Origin: an uncultured Candidatus Saccharibacteria bacterium
GTDB taxonomy: Bacteria > Patescibacteriota > UBA1384 > DATEAH01 > CAYPSR01
Direction: 5' to 3'
Length of the DNA stretch: 42,456 nucleotides
Assembly: GCA_964413595.1 (NCBI GenBank)
Contig: CAYPSR010000002.1
Coordinates: 1-42,456, forward strand
The position numbers were made by a program, and so were the translations under genes. The notes under the pieces are model-generated. The model saw only the letters and a list, made by a program, of their open reading frames with translations, was not told the DNA's origin and made no database searches. Shown here piece by piece: positions 3,263 through 25,786 of the stretch (positions are counted from its first letter, which is position 1; the number at the start of each line of letters is the position of its first letter).

Positions 3263-4534
3263 ATGAAGCAAAAAATTATATCTGATTTTAGTAAGGTTAT
3301 GATTGATTATTCATGGTCTTTTTCTGATAAAACTAGAAAAGATACGGCTTATATTACGCACGGTTACCATCGCTACCCTGCAAAATTTATTCCTCAAATA
3401 GTTTCTCGTTTAGCAAAAAAATACACCAAAGAAGATGATTTAATTGTTGATCCTTTTGGCGGTTGTGGCACAACTCTTGTTGAATCAAAAGTAATGGGAC
3501 GGCTATCTGTTGGCGTTGATATAAACCCTGTTGCTGTTTTGATTACTAAAGCAAAAATTACTCCAATTGATCCAGAAAAAATTGAAAAAGCATTAATGAT
3601 ACTACAAAAAAAACTAGACACATATAGCAAAGATATAAAGATACAAACGCCCAAACACGAAAGAATTGATTATTGGTTTAAGCCGGAAGAAAAAAGAAAA
3701 CTTGCTTTTATTTTTGCTGAAATTTCAAAATTAAAAAATCAAGACATTAGAGATTTTTTTTATTGTGGATTTTCTAACATTTTGAAAAATTGTTCAATTT
3801 GGCTACAAAAAAGTAATAAGCCAACAAGAGATTTGAATAAAAAACCTGCCGACCCGATACAAACTTTTTATAGGCAGATTAAAATGATGATGAGGGGAAA
3901 CGCTCGTTTTTATGAATTGTCAAAAGAAAAAAAACATTTTAAAATATCAAGCCAAGTTTATTGCACAGACGCAAGAACAATTCCAGTTAAAGATAATTCT
4001 GTTAGTTTAATTATTACCTCACCTCCCTATGTTACTTCCTACGAATATGCTGATTTGCACCAATTAACTGCTTTGTGGATGGGACATACAAAGAATTTAA
4101 GTGTTTTTCGTAAAAGATTTATTGGCACTTCCTATCACAGCAAAGAATATTTGGTTTTAAATAGTACGCTTGCTGAAAAAATAAGAAATGAACTATTGAA
4201 AAAAGACAGAAAAACTGCGGAGGAAGTTTCGGCCTATTTTAGCGAGATGAATCAAGTTTTTGTAGAAATGAAAAGAGTTTTAAAAGGGGGTGGAAAAACC
4301 TGCATAGTTATTGGAAATACAAGCTTAAAAGGAGTTAAAATATTAAATGCTGAAGTTTTTGCTGAGCAATTACAAAATTTAGGATTGAAAATTGCTGATA
4401 TTATTAAAAGAGAAATTCCGTCAAAAAATCTACCAACTGCCAGAGATAAAAAAACAGGCAGATTTGCGAAAATCAGCGATAAAAATAAGGTATCTGCTTA
4501 TCCTACAGAGTATATATTAATAATGGAGAAATAA
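3263..4534 (+). CDS. DNA amino-methyltransferase (N4-C or N6-A), alpha-like motif order
   Basis: Motif I DPFGGCGTT (aa 63) and motif IV TSPPY (aa ~253), with about 190 aa between them. Confidence 0.8.
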   Translation: MKQKIISDFSKVMIDYSWSFSDKTRKDTAYITHGYHRYPAKFIPQIVSRLAKKYTKEDDLIVDPFGGCGTTLVESKVMGRLSVGVDINPVAVLITKAKITPIDPEKIEKALMILQKKLDTYSKDIKIQTPKHERIDYWFKPEEKRKLAFIFAEISKLKNQDIRDFFYCGFSNILKNCSIWLQKSNKPTRDLNKKPADPIQTFYRQIKMMMRGNARFYELSKEKKHFKISSQVYCTDARTIPVKDNSVSLIITSPPYVTSYEYADLHQLTALWMGHTKNLSVFRKRFIGTSYHSKEYLVLNSTLAEKIRNELLKKDRKTAEEVSAYFSEMNQVFVEMKRVLKGGGKTCIVIGNTSLKGVKILNAEVFAEQLQNLGLKIADIIKREIPSKNLPTARDKKTGRFAKISDKNKVSAYPTEYILIMEK

Positions 4535-4538
4535 GAAT

Positions 4539-5207
4539 ATGACTATAAATGATTTAATCAAAATTTATGAAACGAAAAAGAAAAAATACGGTATGCAAGC
4601 ATACAGACACATTTCAAATGTTTTAAAAGAAGCAAAAGAGCAACACAAAAAAGACTTTATGGGTAGTGACCATGAACAATCATGGCGTGCTTTTAAAGGT
4701 AAAAATTTAGAAAAACTAATTGAGTATATTATTACTGACGAAGTTCTGGCTTTAGGGTTAAAAGTTGTTAATGGAAATAGTTTAGAGAGGACAAATAGTA
4801 CTAATTTATCGAAAGAATTAAGTTTGGTAAAAAGAAATTTGATCGTTGATTATGGCGAATTTGGTTCTCATTTACCCGATGTTGATTTAATTATTTATGA
4901 CCCAAAAGCAAGCAATGTCGTAGCTGTTTTATCAAGTAAAGTAACTTTACGAGAGAGAATTGCCCAAACAGGTTATTGGAAAATTAAACTTGCATCTGAT
5001 GAAGCGACTAAGCATATTAAGGTTTATTTTGTGACTCCCGATGAGGATGGAACTTTGACAATTAAAAAGCCAACAAAAAAAGGTAGAGCGATTGTTGAAG
5101 TAGATACAGACGGTAGTTATGTTTTAAGCGAAACAGATATTGAGGAAAGTAATAAAGTAAAGATGTTTGATAAATTTATTGATGATCTTAAAAAATTACT
5201 TAAATAA
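4539..5207 (+). CDS. Putative type II restriction endonuclease (PD-(D/E)xK-like)
   Basis: LPDVDLIIYD...VAVLSSKVTLRERIAQTGYW. Lies 4 nt downstream of the methyltransferase. Confidence 0.5.
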   Translation: MTINDLIKIYETKKKKYGMQAYRHISNVLKEAKEQHKKDFMGSDHEQSWRAFKGKNLEKLIEYIITDEVLALGLKVVNGNSLERTNSTNLSKELSLVKRNLIVDYGEFGSHLPDVDLIIYDPKASNVVAVLSSKVTLRERIAQTGYWKIKLASDEATKHIKVYFVTPDEDGTLTIKKPTKKGRAIVEVDTDGSYVLSETDIEESNKVKMFDKFIDDLKKLLK

Positions 5208-5208
5208 T

Positions 5209-5454
5209 ATGACACAATTACAAATAAAATTAGAGTGGAAAAAAGTTTTGGAAGAAACTCATAAAATTTATAATTTGGATTTATATAAGAATAAACTAAA
5301 ACGATATCAACAGATTGTTATACTTAGGGAGCTTCTTTTATTTTGCCAAGTTGTATTAGAAAAAATTAAAACAGGTAAAAATAATGCTTTTAACGAAACG
5401 ATTTATAAAAAAAATATAAATTTTTATTGTACACAAATAAAAAGATATGGCTAA
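5209..5454 (+). CDS. Small hypothetical protein in the R-M operon
   Basis: 81 codons. ATG lies 1 nt after the nuclease stop and the ORF overlaps the next gene by 8 nt. No motif recognised. Confidence 0.35.
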   Translation: MTQLQIKLEWKKVLEETHKIYNLDLYKNKLKRYQQIVILRELLLFCQVVLEKIKTGKNNAFNETIYKKNINFYCTQIKRYG

Positions 5455-6142
5455 AGATTTAATTTTAGAATCCACCACTCTTTGGGATTATCCAACTCAA
5501 AATTATGGCGATAAACCACATGGTAATAATATATACAACGGCGTTACGCCAGCTTTTGTAATTTGGAATTTACTTCAGCGATATACAAAAGAGGGTGATT
5601 TAGTAGTTGATCCGATGTGTGGAAGCGGAACTACAATCGATGTTGCAAAAGAATTGAAGCGCGAAGTGATAGGATATGATCTTAATGTTACAAGGCCTGA
5701 AATAATCAAAAACGATTCTCGGAAAATTCCGCTGAAAGATGATTCTGTTGATTTTGTTTTTATTGACTCGCCATATTCGGACAATATCAATTATTCTAAT
5801 GACAAAAAATGTATTGGAAAAATTTCGTGCGAAAAAACAGAATTTTATGACGAATTAGAAAAAGTCGCTTCTGAAATTGCTAGAATTTTAAAATCAGGAA
5901 AAGTGATGGGTTGGGTTATTGCAGATCAATGGATTAAAAAGAAATTTACAGCTGTTGGATTTTTACTTTGGCAAAGATTAGAAAAATATTTTGAACCAAT
6001 GGAAATAGTTTGCTTGACAAGACACAATCAAACATCAAATACTGGAATTTGGCACAGCAGGGCAAGGCAGTATAATTTTTATTTACGAGGTTTTAAATAT
6101 TTGTTTATAATGAAAAAGCCTTCAAATATAATTAAGAAATGA
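5447..6142 (+). CDS. Small SAM-dependent DNA (or RNA) methyltransferase, gamma-like motif order
   Basis: DPMCGSGTT (aa 55) and an atypical motif IV, FIDSPY (aa 105-110). Confidence 0.7.
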   Translation: MAKDLILESTTLWDYPTQNYGDKPHGNNIYNGVTPAFVIWNLLQRYTKEGDLVVDPMCGSGTTIDVAKELKREVIGYDLNVTRPEIIKNDSRKIPLKDDSVDFVFIDSPYSDNINYSNDKKCIGKISCEKTEFYDELEKVASEIARILKSGKVMGWVIADQWIKKKFTAVGFLLWQRLEKYFEPMEIVCLTRHNQTSNTGIWHSRARQYNFYLRGFKYLFIMKKPSNIIKK

Positions 6143-7361: not shown

Positions 7362-8543
7362 ATGGCTGAAAAATTTGACAGAAACAAACCTCATTTAAAC
7401 ATTGGTACAATTGGTCATGTTGATCACGGTAAAACTACTTTAACCGCGGCAATTTTGCACTACTTGTCAAAAACAGGTCAAGCAAAAGACACAAAGGTTG
7501 ATCAAATTGACAATGCTCCTGAAGAAAAAGATCGTGGCATCACTATTAACATTTCTCATCAAGAGTACGAAACCGAGAAAAGACATTATGCTCATATTGA
7601 TTGCCCGGGTCATGCTGATTATATTAAAAATATGATTACTGGTGCCGCTCAAATGGACGGTGCTATTTTGGTTGTTGCTGCAACAGACGGAATAATGCCT
7701 CAAACAAGAGAACATATCTTACTTGCAAAACAAGTTGGCGTTCCAGCAATAGTAGTTTACATGAACAAAACCGATCAAGTATCGGACCCAGAATTACTGG
7801 ATTTGGTTGAAGAAGAAATCAGAGAACTTTTAGACAAACAAGAATTTAATGGAAAAGAAACTCCAATAATTAGGGGATCAGCGCTTAAAGCATTAGAAGA
7901 TGATGCTGATGCATTAAAATCAATTGAAGACCTTTTAAAAGGAATTGATGATTTTATTCCAGAGCCAAAAAGAGACACTGAAAAACCATTTTTAATGGCT
8001 GTTGAAGATGTATTTACAATTTCAGGTCGCGGAACAGTTGTTACTGGTCGAGTTGAACGTGGAATTGCAAAATTAAATGACGAAATCGAAATTGTTGGAC
8101 TTAAAGCAACTAAAAAAGCAGTTATTACTGGAATTGAAATGTTTAGAAAACAACTAGACGAAGCCCAAGCCGGTGATAATGCTGGAATTTTGCTTCGTGG
8201 AATTGAAAGAGATGATGTTGAGCGTGGTCAAGTTTTGGCAAAACCAGGATCAATTACACCACATAGTGAATTTGATGCGGAAGTATATGCTTTAAAGAAA
8301 GAAGAAGGCGGAAGACATACTCCAATTATGAATGGTTATAAACCACAATTTTATGTTCGAACAACTGATGTTACGGGCGAGGTTGCACTTCCAGAAGGAA
8401 CAGAAATGATTATGCCGGGCGATACAGCAAATTTGAAAGTGAAACTTATTCAACCAGTTGCTGTTGAAGATGGAATGAGATTTGCTGTTAGAGAAGGTGG
8501 TAAAACTGTGGGTGCTGGTGTAGTTACAAAGATTTCAAAATAA
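7362..8543 (+). CDS. tuf: Elongation factor Tu
   Basis: [22 protein letters not shown], full-length 393 aa. Confidence 0.98.
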
Positions 8544-8673: not shown

Positions 8674-9012
8674 ATGCGAGAAGTAAAAATGGCTGAAAAA
8701 CAAGCTTCAAAAAGCAAAATTCGCATTAAGTTGCGAGCCTATGACTATCGAATAGTCGATAAGTCAGCACAAAAGATTTGTGATACAGCAGAACGAACCG
8801 GAGCAATGGTTACTGGTCCGATTCCTTTACCAACCGAAAGAAAGTTGTACACAGTTTTAAGAAGCACATTCGTTAAAAAAGATGCAAGAGATCAGTTTGA
8901 AATGAAAACTCATAAAAGGCTGATCGATATTGTAAATCCAACAAATAAAACGATTGATGCTTTAATGTCGCTTGATTTACCTACCGGTGTTGATATTGAA
9001 ATAAAAATGTGA
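8674..9012 (+). CDS. rpsJ: 30S ribosomal protein S10
   Basis: [15 protein letters not shown]...[10 protein letters not shown]. An alternative ATG at 8689 is possible. Confidence 0.95.
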
Positions 9013-9131: not shown

Positions 9132-9193
9132 AATAAAACCTATGTTTTTTTAATGCTACATAAGTTTCGAAACATATTAGACAAAATAAGATT

Positions 9194-9406
9194 GTCATTC
9201 TGAGTGCAAGCGAAGTCCCGACATAAAGTCGGGATCCCGTATCCTCGCTATGCGAGGCATCGGGAAATCCCATTTTTACTAACAGGCAGGTTTCGCGTAT
9301 GCGAGTCAATCCTGAAACAAGTTCAGGGATCCCTTTCTACGCTCGGGATGACAAAATGTCAGCTTAGAGATCCCTCGTCATTTCATTTTTCAAGATGACG
9401 AGAGCC
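9194..9406. repeat. Cluster of at least 5 short GC-rich hairpin repeats
   Basis: Hairpins seen: GTCATTCTGAG.., TCCCGAC/GTCGGGA, CCTCGC/GCGAGG, CCTGAA/TTCAGG, ATCCC..GGGATGAC, CTCGTCAT/ATGACGAG. Confidence 0.8.
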
Positions 9407-9495: not shown

Positions 9496-9618
9496 ATGGC
9501 AAAAACAAAAGCAGGCAAAAAAATTGTTGAAGTACATTCTCACAAGAGAAAATGTTCAACATGTAAAACAAAAAAATCAACTAAAGTTCGCGAGTACAGA
9601 AGATCAACCCCAAATTAG
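9496..9618 (+). CDS. 40-aa highly basic protein
   Basis: MAKTKAGKKIVEVHSHKRKCSTCKTKKSTKVREYRRSTPN. Strong Shine-Dalgarno (TAAGGAGataat-ATG). Not in the ORF track because it is too short. Confidence 0.5.
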   Translation: MAKTKAGKKIVEVHSHKRKCSTCKTKKSTKVREYRRSTPN

Positions 9619-9672: not shown

Positions 9673-9861
9673 ATGGAAAAAAAAGAAAGAAAAATTGCAA
9701 CAGTTTTAGGGCTATCAATATTGTTCGCAGTATTGATATTTGCTGTTTATTTTGTCATGAAAGGTTTTAAGGCCTATGCTGACACTCTTATCGATTATGA
9801 AAGTTCGGTTATTTCTGAATCAAACGCTGACACTTCAACTTGTGCAACATGTAATCAATAA
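9673..9861 (+). CDS. Small single-pass membrane protein
   Basis: Hydrophobic segment ATVLGLSILFAVLIFAVYFV. Followed by a terminator. Confidence 0.5.
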   Translation: MEKKERKIATVLGLSILFAVLIFAVYFVMKGFKAYADTLIDYESSVISESNADTSTCATCNQ

Positions 9862-9884: not shown

Positions 9885-9911
9885 AAAGCTTAGTACTTGC
9901 TAAGCTTTTTT
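9885..9911 (+). terminator. Intrinsic terminator
   Basis: AAAGCTTAG-tacttg-CTAAGCTTT followed by a T-run. Confidence 0.75.
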
Positions 9912-9993: not shown

Positions 9994-10125
9994 CGACCTT
10001 TGATTTCTATTGAATTTAAAGCTAAAAGATGGTAAAATAATGCATATAAAAAAATTTTAAGCTAAGGTAGCTTTTAAGATACGATCGGATGTTAATTGCT
10101 ACCTTGATAAATAATTATATTTGCT

Positions 10126-10599
10126 ATGTCTGAGGAATTACCAATTAAAGAACAAAAAGTTGATATTAGGAATTTGACAAATATTTTGTATTTGAATAAT
10201 GAGCAAAGGCAATTATTGTCTGATCAACTCGTTGTCAACCAAGGTAGCGCAAGGGTTATAATGCATCTTTTTAATAATTCTTATTCAGACGAGGACTATC
10301 AAGATAAAACCATTCCTGTTTTAGAAAAATCAATTAGAATGCATACCCCAATAATTTTTGGAATTCGTGAATTTGAAGACATTGATTTGGCAGACTTTTT
10401 TAATGAGCATTTTGGATATTTGCCAGAAAATATTTATTATTATCGAACAATTTCTGATGATTCTATGCCTTATTTTCATGGATGTACAAATTCTATGCTG
10501 AATTGTGAGATAGAATATCAATATGCAATGGCATGGAGGGTTTTTGCTGATATTTTAAAAAGTTTAGGAGTAAAGAAATTGGTTTTTTCAGGTATCTAA
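10126..10599 (+). CDS. ORFan pair A, part 1
   Basis: 157 aa. A single in-frame TAA (10597-10599) separates it from part 2 in the same frame. Paralogous to 10905-11429. Confidence 0.55.
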   Translation: MSEELPIKEQKVDIRNLTNILYLNNEQRQLLSDQLVVNQGSARVIMHLFNNSYSDEDYQDKTIPVLEKSIRMHTPIIFGIREFEDIDLADFFNEHFGYLPENIYYYRTISDDSMPYFHGCTNSMLNCEIEYQYAMAWRVFADILKSLGVKKLVFSGI

Positions 10600-10644
10600 A
10601 ATGTTTTTAAAAAAGAAAACATTGAATTCTTAAGAAAAATTGCG

Positions 10645-10905
10645 TTGTCTAGTAATCCAAAATTTAGTAACATACGACAAGAAATAGCGACATCACCCAC
10701 CTATTTGGGTGTAGAATCTTTTTGGGAAGATCGAATGAGAAGAGGAGCAAAAAAATGTGAATATAATCCGACTTTTTGTGTTGGTCGTGCATATAGAATA
10801 ATGTCAAAATATTTTAATTGTTACGTATCACATTTTGCTTATCCTGATGGCAGGAAAAAACAAATGATGTTAGAAGGTACTTTGCCTAGAAAAAAGGTAA
10901 AATAA
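10645..10905 (+). CDS. ORFan pair A, part 2 (TTG start or continuation of part 1)
   Basis: Same frame as 10126-10599. No ATG and no Shine-Dalgarno. Its stop overlaps the next ATG (TAATG). Confidence 0.4.
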   Translation: MSSNPKFSNIRQEIATSPTYLGVESFWEDRMRRGAKKCEYNPTFCVGRAYRIMSKYFNCYVSHFAYPDGRKKQMMLEGTLPRKKVK

Positions 10906-11429
10906 TGTCTGAATTTGGAGCAGAACAACATGATCCAACAAATCTTGAACAAGAACCTCAAACCGGTCAGGTTTTGGAATTGTTTTGGTTGCGAAGAAAT
11001 CAAGAAAAAACCTTGATCGATGAAATACAACAATCAGGCTATATAGTCAGAGCTTGGACTCATCCATTTTATGCCGAAGGATCTAGATTATTTACTAATA
11101 AAGAAAATGAGGCATATTTAGAATATTTAAAAAGAATAGGTGCAATCTATAAAAACCCAATTAAAAATCCAACTTTTGTTTTTGAGGCTAAATCAAAAAT
11201 TGCTGAAACTAAAAAAAGATTAGCAAGAGACTATCCGAATCAGAAGTTTTATATTATTTCAACATTTGAAGAAGATGGTTGGACTAATGAATTTCATGGA
11301 CGCTCTATGCTTATTGATTCTGATGATTTAACCGAGAGTGAGAAAGCAGAAATCAGACAAAAAATGACAGACAAGCTTGATGATTTAGGGGTAGGGGTAT
11401 TATATTTCAAGGTGTATATGTGGCGTTGA
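10905..11429 (+). CDS. ORFan pair B, part 1
   Basis: 174 aa. FYIISTFEEDGWTNEFHG and LDDLGVGVLYFK align to part A1. Confidence 0.55.
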   Translation: MSEFGAEQHDPTNLEQEPQTGQVLELFWLRRNQEKTLIDEIQQSGYIVRAWTHPFYAEGSRLFTNKENEAYLEYLKRIGAIYKNPIKNPTFVFEAKSKIAETKKRLARDYPNQKFYIISTFEEDGWTNEFHGRSMLIDSDDLTESEKAEIRQKMTDKLDDLGVGVLYFKVYMWR

Positions 11430-11719
11430 TTGATAATAATGATGGCAACAGCCAGCACAGTTATGCTCTTATGCGATTTGAAACTGATTTTAAGGGAAAA
11501 TTTATGGATCCGGGTTGTGAATTGGGTATGTACGGATGTGTTTTTGAAACAATGAGACATTTTTTAGGAAACTTTGATCTTAGCCTTTCAAACGCAACAT
11601 TTCCAAATACTAGAATGGATTTTAATCATTATTTTTCAGATATGCCATACAGGGGTTATAGTATTGATGAATATGAATATAGATTGATGAATGCAAGCGC
11701 TAATTATGATAAGAAATAA
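11420..11719 (+). CDS. ORFan pair B, part 2 (GTG start, -1 frame relative to part 1)
   Basis: Overlaps part 1 by 10 nt. AAGGTG lies 5 nt upstream of the GTG. YGCVFETMRHFLGNF aligns to FCVGRAYRIMSKYF of A2. Confidence 0.45.
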   Translation: MALIDNNDGNSQHSYALMRFETDFKGKFMDPGCELGMYGCVFETMRHFLGNFDLSLSNATFPNTRMDFNHYFSDMPYRGYSIDEYEYRLMNASANYDKK

Positions 11720-11752
11720 TTATGCCCAAAATACCAAAATTCGTAATTTATC

Positions 11753-11781
11753 TTGACAAACAAGTTAAAATAGAATAAAAT
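11753..11781 (+). promoter_or_regulatory. Candidate promoter for rplC and the downstream operon
   Basis: tcTTGACA-N17-TAAAAT. Confidence 0.5.
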
Positions 11782-11944: not shown

Positions 11945-12568
11945 ATGGCTAAAATGTTAATAGGCAAAAAATTAGGAATGACATCGGTATTTATTGATGA
12001 AAAAGCAGTCCCGGCAACAGTGATAAGCCTTGGGCCATGTTTTGTTTCACAAATTAAAACTGAAAAAAAAGATGGTTATAATGCAATTCAGCTTGCATAT
12101 GGTAAGTCAAAATCTGTTAATAAACCTCAGAAACAGCACCTTAAAAAAGCAAAGTTAGCCGAAGACCTAAAGTCTCAATACGAATTTAGAACTGGTGATA
12201 CATCAAAATTTGAGCCAGGAATGGAAATTAAATGTGATATTTTTGAAACTGGCTTAAGTGTTGATGCAACATCAATTTCAAAAGGAAAAGGTTTTCAGGG
12301 AACAGTTAAAAGGCATAATTTTAACACTGGGCCAAAAACTCATGGGTCAAAGAATTATCGTAAACCAGGTTCGATTGGTGCGACTGGTCCACAAAGAGTT
12401 TTAAGGGGCAAAAAAATGGCTGGACATATGGGAAATCAAAAAGCAACAATTAAAAATCTTAAAATTTTAGAAATAGATATTGAAAAAAATGTCATGATAT
12501 TAAAAGGTGCAATACCTGGAATAAATGGAAGCACTATGGTAATTAAAGATTCAATACCAAAAAATTAA
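11945..12568 (+). CDS. rplC: 50S ribosomal protein L3
   Basis: MAKMLIGKKLGMT..., FQGTVKRHNF. ATG at 11945 is preferred over the track's TTG at 11933. Confidence 0.95.
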   Translation: MAKMLIGKKLGMTSVFIDEKAVPATVISLGPCFVSQIKTEKKDGYNAIQLAYGKSKSVNKPQKQHLKKAKLAEDLKSQYEFRTGDTSKFEPGMEIKCDIFETGLSVDATSISKGKGFQGTVKRHNFNTGPKTHGSKNYRKPGSIGATGPQRVLRGKKMAGHMGNQKATIKNLKILEIDIEKNVMILKGAIPGINGSTMVIKDSIPKN

Positions 12569-20525: not shown

Positions 20526-21080
20526 ATGAATCAAAATTTTAGAGAAATTGACAATCGACAACGAGACGAGTTTGAAGAATCTATAATTCAAGTAGATCGC
20601 GTCACTCGTGTTTCAGCCGGCGGAAAACGATTAAGATTCCGTGTTACTTTAGTTGTTGGAAATAGAAATGGTAAAGTTGGAATTGCATCTTCTAAGGCGA
20701 CTGAGGTTTCTGAGGCTGTAAAAAAAGCTGCAAAGAAAGCTAGAAAAAACATAATTACCGTTCCAATTATTAACGGAACAATCCCTCATCGAGTAAGAAC
20801 TTCATTCGGAGCCGCTAAAATAATTATTAAACCAGCACCATTGGGTTCTGGAATAATTGCTGGTGGATCAATTAGAGTTTTGGCTGAACTTGCTGGAATT
20901 AAAAATCTTTCTTCTAAGATCTTAGGAACACAAAACAAACTAAATAATCTTAAGGCTGGGATAAAAGCTTTCCAAAGTTTTTTGCCAAAATCACTTAAGC
21001 AAAATCCCAAATTCCAAGAAACAAAAATCAAACAAATTCCAAATCTAAAAGATGATCAAAATAAAATAAATAAGGAATAA
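20526..21080 (+). CDS. rpsE: 30S ribosomal protein S5 (C-terminal extension)
   Basis: [30 protein letters not shown]. Confidence 0.95.
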
Positions 21081-21081
21081 T

Positions 21082-21504
21082 ATGCAAGAAAACTTAAAAA
21101 AGATTAAAAAAACAAAAAAAAGAATTGGTCGAGGAATGGGTTCTGGGACTGGAAAAACTTCTGGCCGTGGACACAAGGGCCAACTTTCAAGAACTTCAAG
21201 TGGAAATATTCCCCGCGGTTTTGAAGGTGGTCAAACTCCTTTAAAAATGAGATTGCCAAAGAAAAGAGGTTTTAGATCTATTAGAAATAAAAATATTGCG
21301 ATAAAATCAAGCGTTATTAATGCAGGTTTTAAAACTGCAAAACTAGAACTCAAAGATCTTATTAAAAAAGGTTTTGCAACTAAAAAAAATAATGTTAAAA
21401 TTATCCTTGATGAGCCCTTAAAAATTGTTAAAGAATTTGGAGAAGGGGTTAAAGCAAGCAAAGGTGTTTTAGCATCTATTAAGAAATTAAAAGTTAAAAG
21501 TTAA
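21082..21504 (+). CDS. rplO: 50S ribosomal protein L15
   Basis: [19 protein letters not shown]. Starts 1 nt after the rpsE stop, so there is no rpmD. Confidence 0.95.
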
Positions 21505-21528: not shown

Positions 21529-21975
21529 ATGTCAGAAATAGTTCCGGTCGAACAATCTGAACAAGTTGATTTGGAAAAATTAACTCCAGAACAAAGAGTT
21601 TGGAGGAGAATTTTGATCTCTAATTGCATCAATAGACTTCATCGAAGAAGTAATTGTGCATTATCGAAAATTGATTATTATTTTATTAACTTAGATGGTT
21701 GTGAATTAGCTAGAGGATTAGTCACAAAAACAGAACATAGACTTAAAAATAATGCCCAGCTGCTATTGGATGCTATAACCAGACTTAGTGATGAAGAAAA
21801 TTTTAATAGACACTATAATAACCCTGCCGAGATGCTTGAGGCTCAAATATTAATAATTAATTCGCTTCCAGAATTATTGTTAAATATTGGCGGTTCAGTA
21901 TCTCCTGAAGAAATTAATCAAAAAAATCCAAATCTTGATTCTGATAATTTCGAGCTTGATATTAGAAGAATGTAG
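21529..21975 (+). CDS. ORFan paralog family (EQR-motif), copy 1
   Basis: LEKLTPEQRVWRRILI and NIGGSVSPEEINQKNPNL blocks are shared with four other ORFs. Inserted between rplO and secY. Confidence 0.65.
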   Translation: MSEIVPVEQSEQVDLEKLTPEQRVWRRILISNCINRLHRRSNCALSKIDYYFINLDGCELARGLVTKTEHRLKNNAQLLLDAITRLSDEENFNRHYNNPAEMLEAQILIINSLPELLLNIGGSVSPEEINQKNPNLDSDNFELDIRRM

Positions 21976-24060: not shown

Positions 24061-24087
24061 ATTAGCTGAAAAAGGTTGGATATACTT

Positions 24088-24134
24088 GTCATTCCTGACT
24101 TGATCAGGAATCCCCGCCTGCCGGCGAGGCAGGC
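24088..24134 (+). repeat. Two hairpin repeat units
   Basis: GTCATTCCTGA-cttga-TCAGGAATCC, then GCCTGCC-ggcga-GGCAGGC. Translated spuriously at the start of track ORF 24076. Confidence 0.75.
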
Positions 24135-24177
24135 AAGAAAGAAAATTATTATAAAAGAGAGGGCTGAAAAGGATAAA

Positions 24178-24729
24178 ATGGTATCTAGAGAAGTAATGGA
24201 CCAAATCGCTTTAAAAACAATTCCGTCTGAAAACGAGCGACTGATGGAGCAACTTAATCTGTTAACACCTGAACAAAAAGCAATGAGATTGCATACATTG
24301 ATTTTGTCAAATAAAGTATTTTTTGATTTTGTAAAAAGAGTTTATGAACCCTTAACCAATCCATTCAGTGAAGATTGAAAAACTAGAAATAAATATTTAA
24401 GAGACAACGAGCGAAATGATTATTTAATCGGGACTTTTTGTGAAGATGGATTTATAGATTTTCAGAATATTATAATTGAACAAGACCCAGAAGATGTTAT
24501 TGGCTACACATTAAGTCTATTCAATCAAAGTTGTGCTGCGCGATTAGGGGTTCCGAGACAATATCCAATTGCTATTGCTCAAAGCGAGTTGGTTTATTTA
24601 TTGAATCATAGTGAAAAAAGAGAAGTATTTGGCAGACCATTTCAAGTAAGTGAAATTGGTAATATGCCACTGATAGAATCTATGGTTTTAGCTATTCCAG
24701 AAATAAGAGATAATTTAACGCGGGGGTAA
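24178..24729 (+). pseudogene. ORFan paralog family, copy 2, with in-frame TGA at 24376-24378
   Basis: ATG at 24178 (AAGGAtaaa upstream). The same frame stays open for 117 codons past the TGA, to the TAA at 24727. Has both family blocks (LNLLTPEQKAMRLHTLI; FGRPFQVSEIGNMPLIESM). Confidence 0.6.
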
Positions 24730-24731
24730 GT

Positions 24732-25229
24732 ATGGTATATTTACCTTGTTCAATGCGACGCGAAACAAATCAAGTTCCATATCCAGAACCAGAAAAGACA
24801 CCTCAAAAATATTTGCAAGATTTAATGGAGTTGCCAAAACCACAGCGCATTTTAAGGTTATATGTAATTAGTTTAATGCAATATAAAATTGCACATGTTA
24901 AATATTCTTTTATGCAAGAAAATGAACAGGTTTTTGCTGAAAGACTTAAAAATGCAAACACCATTATGCATTTTATTGAAGAAGGCCAGCATATTGATCA
25001 AAGGTCTCGTTCACAAGCATTTAATCGGCTACTTACCCAACCCAGAAATCCGAGAGAAGACTTTATAGGAAACCCAGCCGATAACCATCAAATAGCAGAT
25101 TATATTATAAATGACTTAGGTGATGCGTTATCTTGTTTAGAATTAGGCGGAATTCCTTTGGAGCCAGATGAAATTATGAGTTTGCCAATAGATGAGGAAT
25201 CTGTGGCTAGAATGTTAGAATTAGAATAA
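24732..25229 (+). CDS. ORFan paralog family, copy 3
   Basis: YLQDLMELPKPQRILRLYVI; LGGIPLEPDEIMSLPIDEE. Confidence 0.65.
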   Translation: MVYLPCSMRRETNQVPYPEPEKTPQKYLQDLMELPKPQRILRLYVISLMQYKIAHVKYSFMQENEQVFAERLKNANTIMHFIEEGQHIDQRSRSQAFNRLLTQPRNPREDFIGNPADNHQIADYIINDLGDALSCLELGGIPLEPDEIMSLPIDEESVARMLELE

Positions 25230-25264: not shown

Positions 25265-25786
25265 ATGAGTCGAGACAAGGGAAAAATTATGTCAAATTTA
25301 CCAAAAGAGACAACTGGTCCAGCGCCAGCGCAAGAAACCCAGCCGAAAACACCAGAAATGTATTTGGAAGATTTGATGGCACTGCCAAAAGAACAAAGGG
25401 CATTAAGATTATATTTTATAGCCGAAGTACGAACTAAGTCAGCGCTAGCATCGCGTTCTGCGGGCATAACATCTGACGAGATAGATCAATCGTTCAGAAT
25501 GGGTGAATTACTAATAAGACAATATCCCTCACTCATATCGATCAGTGCATCATTTTTAGATTTATTTGGTTTGGTGAACCCAATTATTGAAGCACATCTA
25601 CCTTCTACGCATTTAAATCCAGACATAAATAGATATATTGAACTTTTTACAGGCTATTTTAATAATCCTAATTATAACATCGAACAATATATTGGGCATG
25701 AGATTGATGCACAAGAAGTTAAAAGCTTTCCATTATCTCCAGAATTAATTGAAGAAACATTAAGAGCCTATGAACAAACTTCCTAA
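25265..25786 (+). CDS. ORFan paralog family, copy 4
   Basis: YLEDLMALPKEQRALRLYFI; IGHEIDAQEVKSFPLSPEL. An alternative ATG at 25289 has better AAGGGA spacing. The 3' end overlaps adk. Confidence 0.65.
   Translation: MSRDKGKIMSNLPKETTGPAPAQETQPKTPEMYLEDLMALPKEQRALRLYFIAEVRTKSALASRSAGITSDEIDQSFRMGELLIRQYPSLISISASFLDLFGLVNPIIEAHLPSTHLNPDINRYIELFTGYFNNPNYNIEQYIGHEIDAQEVKSFPLSPELIEETLRAYEQTS

Follow-up and report, generated by a model that had tools for sequence, protein, structure and literature searches.

The four small open reading frames (ORFs) at positions 10126-10599, 10645-10905, 10905-11429 and 11420-11719 of the window, i.e. the whole stretch of 42,456 nucleotides of DNA that we analysed, are parts of two disrupted genes, which we refer to as A and B. 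Two recent and independent inactivating mutations have probably hit these redundant paralogues and turned them into two young pseudogenes. In A this is a sense-to-TAA nonsense substitution at 10597-10599 and in B a 1-nt deletion of its own at 11392/11393, both acquired in this species and fixed in the sampled natural population, and the most likely consequence would be a loss of function within a decaying array of paralogues. Since the lesions in A and B are genuine and differ from each other, while all relatives are single intact genes, ordinary decay is the most likely explanation.

Organization of the A and B loci

Genes A (10126-10905) and B (10905-11719) are located in a 2.9-kb insert, which is bordered upstream by rpsJ encoding ribosomal protein S10 (8674-9012; Pfam PF00338, E = 3e-36) and downstream by rplC encoding ribosomal protein L3 (11945-12568; Pfam PF00297, E = 4e-17); all features described here lie on the forward strand. 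The insert is lineage-specific and accessory, and the host is an uncultured, CPR-like bacterium. The N-terminal part of gene A (A1, 10126-10596, 157 codons according to the ORF list) carries the invariant His of the protein family described below (VIMHLF) and breaks off behind the conserved KKLVFSGI strand. It is followed by the in-frame TAA codon (10597-10599) and by a C-terminal continuation in the A1 frame (10600-10905), which consists of 15 open codons and the annotated A2, starting from a TTG at 10645, and which contains the invariant Cys (FCVGRAY). The N-terminal part of gene B (10905-11392) is read in frame 0 up to DDLGV and harbors the invariant His in WTHPFY, and its C-terminal part (11393-11719), which begins with RGIIFQGVYVALI and runs through CVFETMRHF to the stop, is encoded in the -1 frame and supplies the conserved strand as well as the invariant Cys. 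The end of the annotated B1 ORF (11393-11429, GVLYFKVYMWR followed by a stop) is an out-of-frame tail, which had been described as an "LYFKG strand" in the first-pass annotation. Apart from this, we could confirm the layout given there, i.e. the four ORFs, the TAA with the 15 open codons up to the TTG, the -1 frame of the second part of B, the AAGGTG 5 nt upstream of a GTG at 11420 and the overlap of A2 and B1 as TAATG at 10903-10907. A and B are paralogues in tandem, coupled in translation, and belong to an unannotated alpha/beta family with a single domain.

A promoter-like site precedes gene A (10010-10038, TTGAAT-17-TAAAAT with an upstream TG), which is to be read as a consensus match only. 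Another one, which is near-consensus with 11/12 matches (TTGACA-17-TAAAAT), is located between B and rplC at 11753-11781, and such a motif is also present in L089, from JGI 3300037810, between the A-like gene and rplC. In L001, which carries an intact orthologue of B, a further paralogue starts directly after B, whereas the window has just a short, weakly similar ORF at this place; we regard the missing paralogue as a sign of array decay.

The protein family of A and B

A profile search for the A/B family retrieved 200 representatives at E ≤ 1e-3, which correspond to about 200 clusters at 50% identity. The members have a length of 205-290 aa and share an invariant His in an HP motif in the N-terminal half, an invariant Gly closing the strand KKIIIGG and an invariant Cys in a CVG motif in the C-terminal half. 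Judged from sequence comparisons, the family is unannotated and without a counterpart in the Pfam, NCBIfam, PHROG or PADLOC profile libraries; searches against these profiles and a sequence-profile search of the PDB returned noise only, and neither 60 family members nor A and B themselves matched Pfam.

Almost all of the representatives (147 of 148) cover both halves of the family, the sole exception being the window's own fragment. The suggestion that homologues might be split at the same place was thus not borne out, as there is no representative consisting of only the N- or only the C-terminal half besides the window's own pieces. By being interrupted, both A and B depart from this single-polypeptide form. 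An intact single-ORF orthologue of B, P0001 (268 aa, encoded on L001), is 81% identical and stems from a relative in SRR31239917, and an A-like single ORF, P0004 (263 aa, 39% identical), aligns continuously across the stop of A. The ancestral form of each gene was therefore one ORF of about 260 codons, as across the whole family. Intact near-identical copies of A or B were not found among 5.8 billion protein clusters, and word-indexed protein searches with the fused A and with the 60-sequence family alignment returned only the window's own pieces and P0022. Likewise, a scan of GTDB genomes with the B/P0001 alignment gave no relative, and in a genome scan with L3 the identities did not exceed 52%. 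No partner gene is conserved next to other members of the family (L002, L090 and L091-L093), and their neighbourhoods hence provide no functional clue.

The paralogy of A and B, which had been proposed from aligned segments, holds when it is judged with the family profile but not by pairwise alignment alone. BLASTP of A versus B only gave E = 0.067 and 0.18, and Smith-Waterman scores were 5.5-6.2 sd above those of shuffled sequences, with none of 1000 shuffles scoring as well. On the basis of the E value of 0.067, and given that a hidden Markov model (HMM) built from B and P0001 alone did not separate A from shuffles, one could argue that A and B are not paralogues and that their likeness arose by chance. 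In contrast, an HMM of 142 other family members, built without A, B or their nearest relatives, scored A with 97.9 bits and B with 117 bits, and each half matched the corresponding half of the profile in collinear order: A1 at positions 12-168 (60 bits), the C-terminal part of A at 170-234 (37 bits), B1 at 9-161 (72 bits) and the C-terminal part of B at 164-230 (29 bits). The invariant His, Gly and Cys are common to both, as H47, G156 and C218 in A and as the equivalents of H50, G167 and C209 of P0001 in B, and AF2 models of P0001 and of A read through its stop show an identical order of secondary-structure elements. In the MAFFT alignment, A was entered as one row with an X at the stop. The scores of the 142-member HMM effectively refute a chance similarity, to which we assign practically no probability. 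A further proposed link, between the N-terminus of A1 and the "EQR" block of a five-copy family, found no support in either direction, since an HMM of the five ORFs gave A and B scores that shuffled sequences reach as well, and the five ORFs did not match the HMM of the A/B family.

Nature and position of the two lesions

The DNA alignment with L001 revealed that the break in B is not located directly after LYFKG, as had been assumed, but is a 1-nt deletion at 11392/11393 (GT-A in the window versus GTTA in L001; TTAGGGG-TAGGGGT versus TTAGGAGTTAGGGGT over the surrounding stretch). The deletion lies 9 codons upstream of the earlier placement, the true peptide of B being DDLGV followed directly by RGIIFQGVYVALI; the sequence GVLYFKV, and with it the "LYFKG strand", is an out-of-frame reading of RGIIFQG. 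The stop in A corresponds to position 170 of the family profile and the shift in B falls between positions 161 and 162, from which it follows that the two breaks are close but not at the same position, being 8-9 profile positions apart on opposite sides of one conserved beta-strand. As the lesion in B had been misplaced by 9 codons, the premise of a single spot is weaker than originally stated. The chance that a random pair of lesions lies this close is about 7-8%, and both lesions adjoin the most variable loop of the family; their position on either side of the same strand is best taken as a moderate coincidence. Opposite the TAA of A, a Tyr codon (TAT) is found in B and P0001, and P0004 has a Leu.

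Both lesions recur in other assemblies. The same TAA is present in four distinct contigs besides the window (L003/L005, L004, L006 and L007), and the frameshifted gene calls of B, with 174 aa and 99 aa, recur in two contigs (L004 and L008). The sequences L003-L008, which represent five distinct contigs as one JGI contig occurs as both L003 and L005, originate from three or four samples, i.e. two from ENA, one from JGI and the Logan run SRR8437287, the reads of which may be those of the JGI sample. All match the window at 99.9-100% identity and share its TAA, its frameshift or both. SNPs at three positions (10314, 10854 and 11157) and an indel of 23 nt distinguish them, which shows that the lesions are common to at least three haplotypes. 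Two of the SNPs are synonymous and one is non-synonymous, numbers too small for judging selection.

From this recurrence we conclude that the lesions are genuine. Sequencing or assembly artefacts in genes that are in reality intact would be conceivable for B, where a single-base indel lies beside the repeat GGGGTA GGGGTA, and contigs of metagenome-assembled genomes can carry errors in general. Yet the TAA is found in four and the frameshift in two other contigs from different samples and pipelines (MEGAHIT k141, JGI and Logan), the SNPs tell apart at least three haplotypes, and the ribosomal protein genes of the window are of normal length without any sign of frameshifts, which makes such artefacts very improbable. 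According to the first-pass annotation, uninterrupted homologues together with reads revealing sequencing errors would refute its observation; the homologues are indeed uninterrupted, but the lesions are not errors. Its notion of two independent lesions is supported, given that a nonsense codon and a 1-nt deletion are different in kind and both recur in independent assemblies. As is demanded of pseudogenes, the ORFs of both A and B are reproducibly interrupted where the homologues are intact.

In the comparison of B with L001, dN/dS amounts to 0.106 upstream and 0.137 downstream of the lesion, at a dS of about 1, which renders a recent event invisible. As the downstream ratio is as low as the upstream one, there is no positive sign of relaxed constraint on B; the low downstream value fits a recent lesion and fits continued function as well.

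Alternative explanations

A conserved or recoded two-part architecture had been put forward as the alternative to two lesions, and in its recoded form full-length proteins would arise from A by readthrough of the TAA and from B by -1 ribosomal frameshifting. The architecture of the family would be recovered in such products, the downstream part is an intact ORF in both genes, and immediately behind the TAA of A there is an AU hairpin of 9 bp. However, two paralogues would need two different mechanisms, and neither event is conserved: homologues are uninterrupted (147 of 148 representatives, P0001 and P0004), the orthologue P0001 on L001 is one ORF and has one base more at the site, and where A has its stop, P0004 and every other homologue carry a sense codon. 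Direct reading of 11385-11427 (TTA GGG GTA GGG GTA TTA TAT TTC AAG GTG TAT ATG TGG CGT TGA) revealed no slippery heptamer of the type X_XXY_YYZ, and the region 11396-11475 does not form a stimulatory structure, with a minimum free energy z of +0.38 and 126 of 200 shuffles folding as well or better; after the site in A, z is -1.78 and 13 of 200 shuffles are as good. The context of the stop is TAA-A, and TAA is an ordinary stop codon in this window of 31% GC, where it terminates A2 and B2 and where TGA terminates rpsJ; conserved genes nearby end in both of these codons, and stop codons are not reassigned. We therefore consider recoding highly improbable.

A more serious competitor, although still an unlikely one, is a tolerated fission, in which each paralogue broke where a split is permissible, on one or the other side of the strand preceding the variable loop, and the halves reassemble into an active protein. 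The N-terminal half with the His and the C-terminal half with the Cys would then be made separately, A2 by re-initiation and B2 from the GTG at 11420. The lesions lie within 9 profile positions beside the most variable loop, which is of low pLDDT, both are fixed across haplotypes, the stop of B1 overlaps the GTG of B2, which is preceded by a Shine-Dalgarno-like AGGTG (-6.4 kcal/mol, comparable to real genes here), and dN/dS is low in the downstream part of B. On the other hand, no other family member is split, all but one of the 148 representatives being single chains, and the separate products would be incomplete: A2 from its TTG, for which there is no Shine-Dalgarno sequence, would be devoid of residues 159-173, which are structured in the AF2 model, and B2 from the GTG would start after the conserved strand RGIIFQGVY, leaving this strand encoded in neither product. 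The codon of the candidate GTG is GTC in the orthologue on L001, and with the nearest relative at a dS of about 1, the dN/dS argument is blind to a recent event. The more demanding version, according to which both putative enzymes independently became two-chain proteins with breaks that flank one and the same strand and separate a His from a Cys module, and were retained as the halves assemble, is less likely again.

Implications

In the annotation, two disrupted genes should take the place of the four small "hypothetical proteins" at 10126-11719, with the junction in B at 11392/11393. The biological point under the preferred reading, i.e. the decay of both paralogues, is a modest one: a real, population-fixed decay in an accessory insert of the rpsJ-rplC junction in an uncultured lineage. 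If A and B were instead two-chain proteins, this would be a case of gene fission that was convergent and tolerated in a CPR-like bacterium with a reduced genome, and functional halves would provide a neat example from nature of proteins split by convergence, in a Cys/His alpha/beta family not described before. The unannotated family itself, with its invariant His and Cys and its confident single-domain fold, could be worth defining as a domain and studying biochemically.

Predicted structure and comparison with known systems

As envisaged earlier for the fused sequences, A read through its stop was predicted by AF2 as one confident, compact domain (pLDDT 87.5), in which residues 159-174 are structured and the codons between the TAA and the TTG form structured elements. 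P0001 was likewise predicted as a single compact domain (pLDDT 81.7). The modelled fold appears Rossmann-like alpha/beta and weakly isochorismatase-like. The top Foldseek match of the P0001 model is the nicotinamidase 6kua (E = 5e-3, probability 0.97, TM 0.31/0.46), and the matches of the A model include 4h17, 5hwg and 8rkz (probability 0.57-0.85); unrelated Rossmann-like folds score similarly.

With the isochorismatase-like cysteine hydrolases (the nicotinamidase PncA, maleamate amidase and the N-domain of EntB; PF00857), the family appears to share a three-layer alpha/beta arrangement with parallel strands and a strand that closes with a Gly, behind which a Cys begins a helix, and matches to these enzymes recur weakly in Foldseek (6kua, 8rkz, 4l07, 2fq1, 3hb7, 4h17 and 5hwg). 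This could point to a putative Cys/His hydrolase-like chemistry. It differs from them in TM-scores of only 0.25-0.46, without a Foldseek match at E ≤ 1e-3, and in a variable insert of 30-60 residues between the Gly strand and the Cys. In the isochorismatase fold, the catalytic Asp of the Asp-Lys-Cys triad closes the first core strand; the A/B family has its invariant His at this place, and an invariant or conserved Lys was not identified. Neither a Pfam match to PF00857 nor an isochorismatase among the PDB profile matches was obtained for the family. The program hhalign aligned the family motif W..L...LGVKKIIIGG with LLNWLRQRGVDEVDVVGI of PncA from M. tuberculosis over 28 columns and at a non-significant E of 0.058.

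As in programmed -1 frameshifting (dnaX, IS elements) or readthrough, the downstream ORFs of A and B encode the rest of a conserved domain; unlike in these systems, a slippery heptamer and a stimulatory structure are lacking, the interruption is not conserved and two different mechanisms would be needed. Naturally split genes resemble A and B in that the breaks lie near a variable surface loop between halves with one invariant residue each, but here the split is unique to this species, and with the proposed restart sites structured or conserved elements would be lost. Compared to bacterial pseudogenes that arose by point nonsense or frameshift mutations in recently duplicated or accessory genes, the lesions of A and B are unusual in being fixed across the sampled haplotypes, in lying close together in the alignment and in the absence of further visible decay downstream. 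Otherwise these pseudogenes provide a close parallel: a single small lesion separates each of A and B from an intact ORF, intact orthologues or homologues exist, the two genes form a redundant tandem pair within an accessory insert, and their lesions are of independent kinds.

Genomic setting of the rpsJ-rplC insert

The window (31% G+C) carries the str/S10/spc ribosomal gene cluster with EF-Tu at 7362-8543, S10 (rpsJ) at 8674-9012 and L3 (rplC) at 11945-12568, and an insert of 2.9 kb separates rpsJ from rplC, which comprises, in this order, a hairpin-rich stretch of higher GC content, two tiny ORFs, a terminator-like hairpin and the ORFs A1, A2, B1 and B2. The stretch (9190-9400) contains several hairpins, including GTCCCGACATAAAGTCGGGATCC and CCTCGCTATGCGAGG, and gave no match in Rfam; a resembling hairpin (GTCCCGA...TCGGGATCC) is located upstream of rplC on a related contig, L089 (about 1110-1150), and these hairpins may represent a lineage-specific palindromic repeat element. 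The tiny ORFs between rpsJ and gene A, both called as genes in the L004 assembly and both without a Pfam match, encode a highly basic, Cys-containing peptide of 40 aa (9496-9618; MAKTKAGKKIVEVHSHKRKCSTCKTKK...) and a peptide of 62 aa (9673-9861), whose hydrophobic stretch suggests a membrane segment. The hairpin following them (9885-9908) is the only terminator-like one of the region.

A near-consensus sigma-70-type promoter-like site (TTGACA-17-TAAAAT, 11753-11781) upstream of rplC is kept in L089, which suggests that, in this lineage, transcription of rplC and the genes after it does not depend on rpsJ. On L089, the gene of an intact A-like protein (P0004) directly precedes rplC and is followed by the same motif. 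From this we conclude that members of the A/B family at the rpsJ-rplC junction are characteristic of this group.

Across 185,579 GTDB species genomes, the nearest L3 reaches only 52% identity. The host therefore belongs to a deep uncultured lineage, which is probably CPR-like. Only one base separates S5 (20526-21080) from an L15-like ORF (region 20526-21504), which was recognised by a motif and missed by Pfam at E ≤ 0.01; the two leave no room for L30, and the gene is absent between them. A missing L30 is typical of CPR/Patescibacteria. Just upstream of the EF-Tu region, a restriction-modification cluster (3263-6142) consists of two N6/N4 DNA methylase ORFs, at 3263-4534 and at 5447-6142, with a BsaWI-like type II endonuclease (4539-5207) between them. 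Five paralogous "EQR" ORFs (21529-21975, 24076-24378, 24732-25229, 25265-25786 and 28277-28747), scattered among ribosomal protein, adk/map and S13/S11 genes, have in common the motif L..L..EQR..RL and, later, IGG...P.E, and none of the five matches Pfam. The N-terminus of A1 had been likened to this group, but an HMM of the five retrieved only these same ORFs in the window, and A and B have no relationship to them.

A and B are interrupted paralogues of a larger family

The ORF coordinates and reading frames of the first-pass annotation hold: A1 (10126-10599) stops at an in-frame TAA (10597-10599), its frame remaining open as far as 10905 (A2, 10645-10905, TTG start), and B1 (10905-11429) continues in the -1 frame to 11719 (B2, 11420-11719, GTG start), A2 and B1 overlapping as TAATG. 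Compared directly with each other, A and B show hardly any similarity (BLASTP, E = 0.067; Smith-Waterman, 5.5-6.2 sd above shuffles), and their proposed paralogy is firm only via the family profile. A search of 1.84 billion proteins with a profile made from P0001, A and B retrieved 200 cluster representatives at E ≤ 1e-3. A family HMM rebuilt from 142 of them, from which A, B and their closest relatives were left out, scored A with 97.9 bits and B with 117 bits, placing A1 and B1 on its first two thirds and A2 and B2 on its last third. P0001, found with frame-corrected B, is a single ORF of 268 aa with 81% identity to B, encoded on a 1081-nt Logan contig (L001), where this intact orthologue of B stands in tandem between the C-terminus of an A-like gene and the first part of a third paralogue. 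Right after B, a short ORF (11722-11778; MPKIPKFVIYLDKQVKIE and a stop), which overlaps the promoter-like site of rplC, shows a weak DNA alignment to the start of this third paralogue (L001 998-1081; MSEIPIIQSNPEQEPQLGQVLEFFH...) and may be what remains of a third copy that was deleted.

The lesions are genuine and flank a conserved strand

In the DNA alignment with L001, the window is one base short in B (TTAGGGG-TAGGGGT vs TTAGGAGTTAGGGGT). Codon bookkeeping places this deletion between 11392 and 11393, and the true peptide across the lesion therefore reads ...DDLGV|RGIIFQGVYVALI... The first-pass annotation had both genes break at the same alignment position, having aligned "GVLYFKV" of B with "KKLVFSGI" of A; the codons concerned encode RGIIFQGV, of which "GVLYFKV" is a reading in the wrong frame, and the idea of a shared position stood in part on this reading. 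What stands is that both lesions lie near one strand: because the shift in B falls between profile positions 161 and 162 and the TAA of A at position 170, the conserved strand (consensus VKKIIIGG) has one lesion before and the other after it. Two random lesions would come this close with a chance of about 7-8% (246-position profile), which is noticeable, but not compelling.

Further assemblies, retrieved by exact-protein look-ups, were 99.9-100% identical to the window with few differences. Both lesions are present in L004 (ENA ERZ27248937, 5184 nt, spanning EF-Tu to L3), that of B in L008 (ERZ27248920), and the TAA of A in L003 and L005 (JGI 3300028191), L006 (ERZ27248920) and L007 (Logan SRR8437287). 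SNPs at 10314 (T>A, synonymous), 10854 (G>A, synonymous) and 11157 (C>T, Pro to Ser) and a 23-nt indel between the window and L008 (11854/11855, B-rplC spacer) separate these contigs from the window; both lesions are thus common to at least three haplotypes. Over 5.2 kb, the two SNPs distinguishing L004 (10314 and 11157) both lie within A and B. The same reads may underlie some of these assemblies (L007 begins at the same base as L003 and has one SNP in common with it), but several samples and pipelines are still involved. A protein index of 5.8 billion clusters contained no intact copies closer than 81% (B) or 39% (A). Recurrence of the same TAA and frameshift speaks against sequencing errors; the lesions are genuine, and A and B are tandem paralogues with real interruptions.

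Decay, fission or recoding

A conserved two-part architecture, as considered initially, is not found in the family: both halves lie in one chain in 147 of the 148 listed representatives, the sole exception being the window's own A2 fragment, and P0004 (263 aa, 39% identical to A over 250 residues) aligns uninterrupted across the stop of A and across the 15 codons that separate TAA from TTG. Programmed recoding is very unlikely, since it would demand two different devices in two paralogues, conserved nowhere else. The only stretch in which a -1 shift could rescue B (11385-11427), read directly, lacks an X_XXY_YYZ heptamer, and shuffled versions of the RNA downstream fold just as well (z = +0.38). 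In A the stop reads TAA-A, and the AU hairpin behind it is weak (z = -1.78, matched by 13 of 200 shuffles); nearby genes use both TAA and TGA as normal terminators.

Pseudogenisation of both genes is the likely course of events. Between B and its orthologue (dS about 1), dN/dS is 0.106 before the lesion and 0.137 after it. Over most of the history since the orthologue split, purifying selection acted on the downstream part; this fits a recent lesion and is also compatible with continued function. A functional fission, in which the separately made halves still work, seems improbable, even if both lesions are fixed, the breaks lie near a variable, low-confidence loop and an SD-like AGGTG precedes the GTG of B2. 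With its start at TTG, A2 would be without residues 159-173, which the model of full-length A folds into strand plus helix with a pLDDT of about 89-90; B2 from 11420 would begin past the conserved strand, which B1 has only out of frame, and other split family members were absent. Arguments from ribosome binding are weak both ways, because SD motifs, missing from more than half of the genes in this genome, are dispensable. Ordinary decay of redundant accessory genes is the most likely explanation, and the residual interest lies in a possible natural fission and in the pointer to an unannotated protein family.

Predicted fold and possible chemistry

AF2 confidently predicted single domains of alternating beta-alpha units both for P0001 (pLDDT 81.7, pTM 0.81) and for A read through its stop (pLDDT 87.5, pTM 0.85). 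The family invariants are a His, a Gly and a Cys (H50, G167 and C209 in P0001); a core strand (residues 44-49 of the P0001 model) ends at the His, and a helix has the Cys at its N-terminus. Gene neighbourhoods of other members are mutually unrelated, and scans of Pfam, NCBIfam, PHROGs and PADLOC, a PDB profile search and hhalign against PncA yielded no significant match. Foldseek gave no PDB match at E ≤ 1e-3; isochorismatase-like cysteine hydrolases recur among its hits (nicotinamidase 6kua, probability 0.97, TM 0.31/0.46; 8rkz, 4l07, 2fq1, 3hb7, 4h17 and 5hwg), generic Rossmann-like folds reaching similar scores. Our best guess is that the protein may be a hydrolase or amidase with a Cys nucleophile and a putative relationship to the isochorismatase fold.
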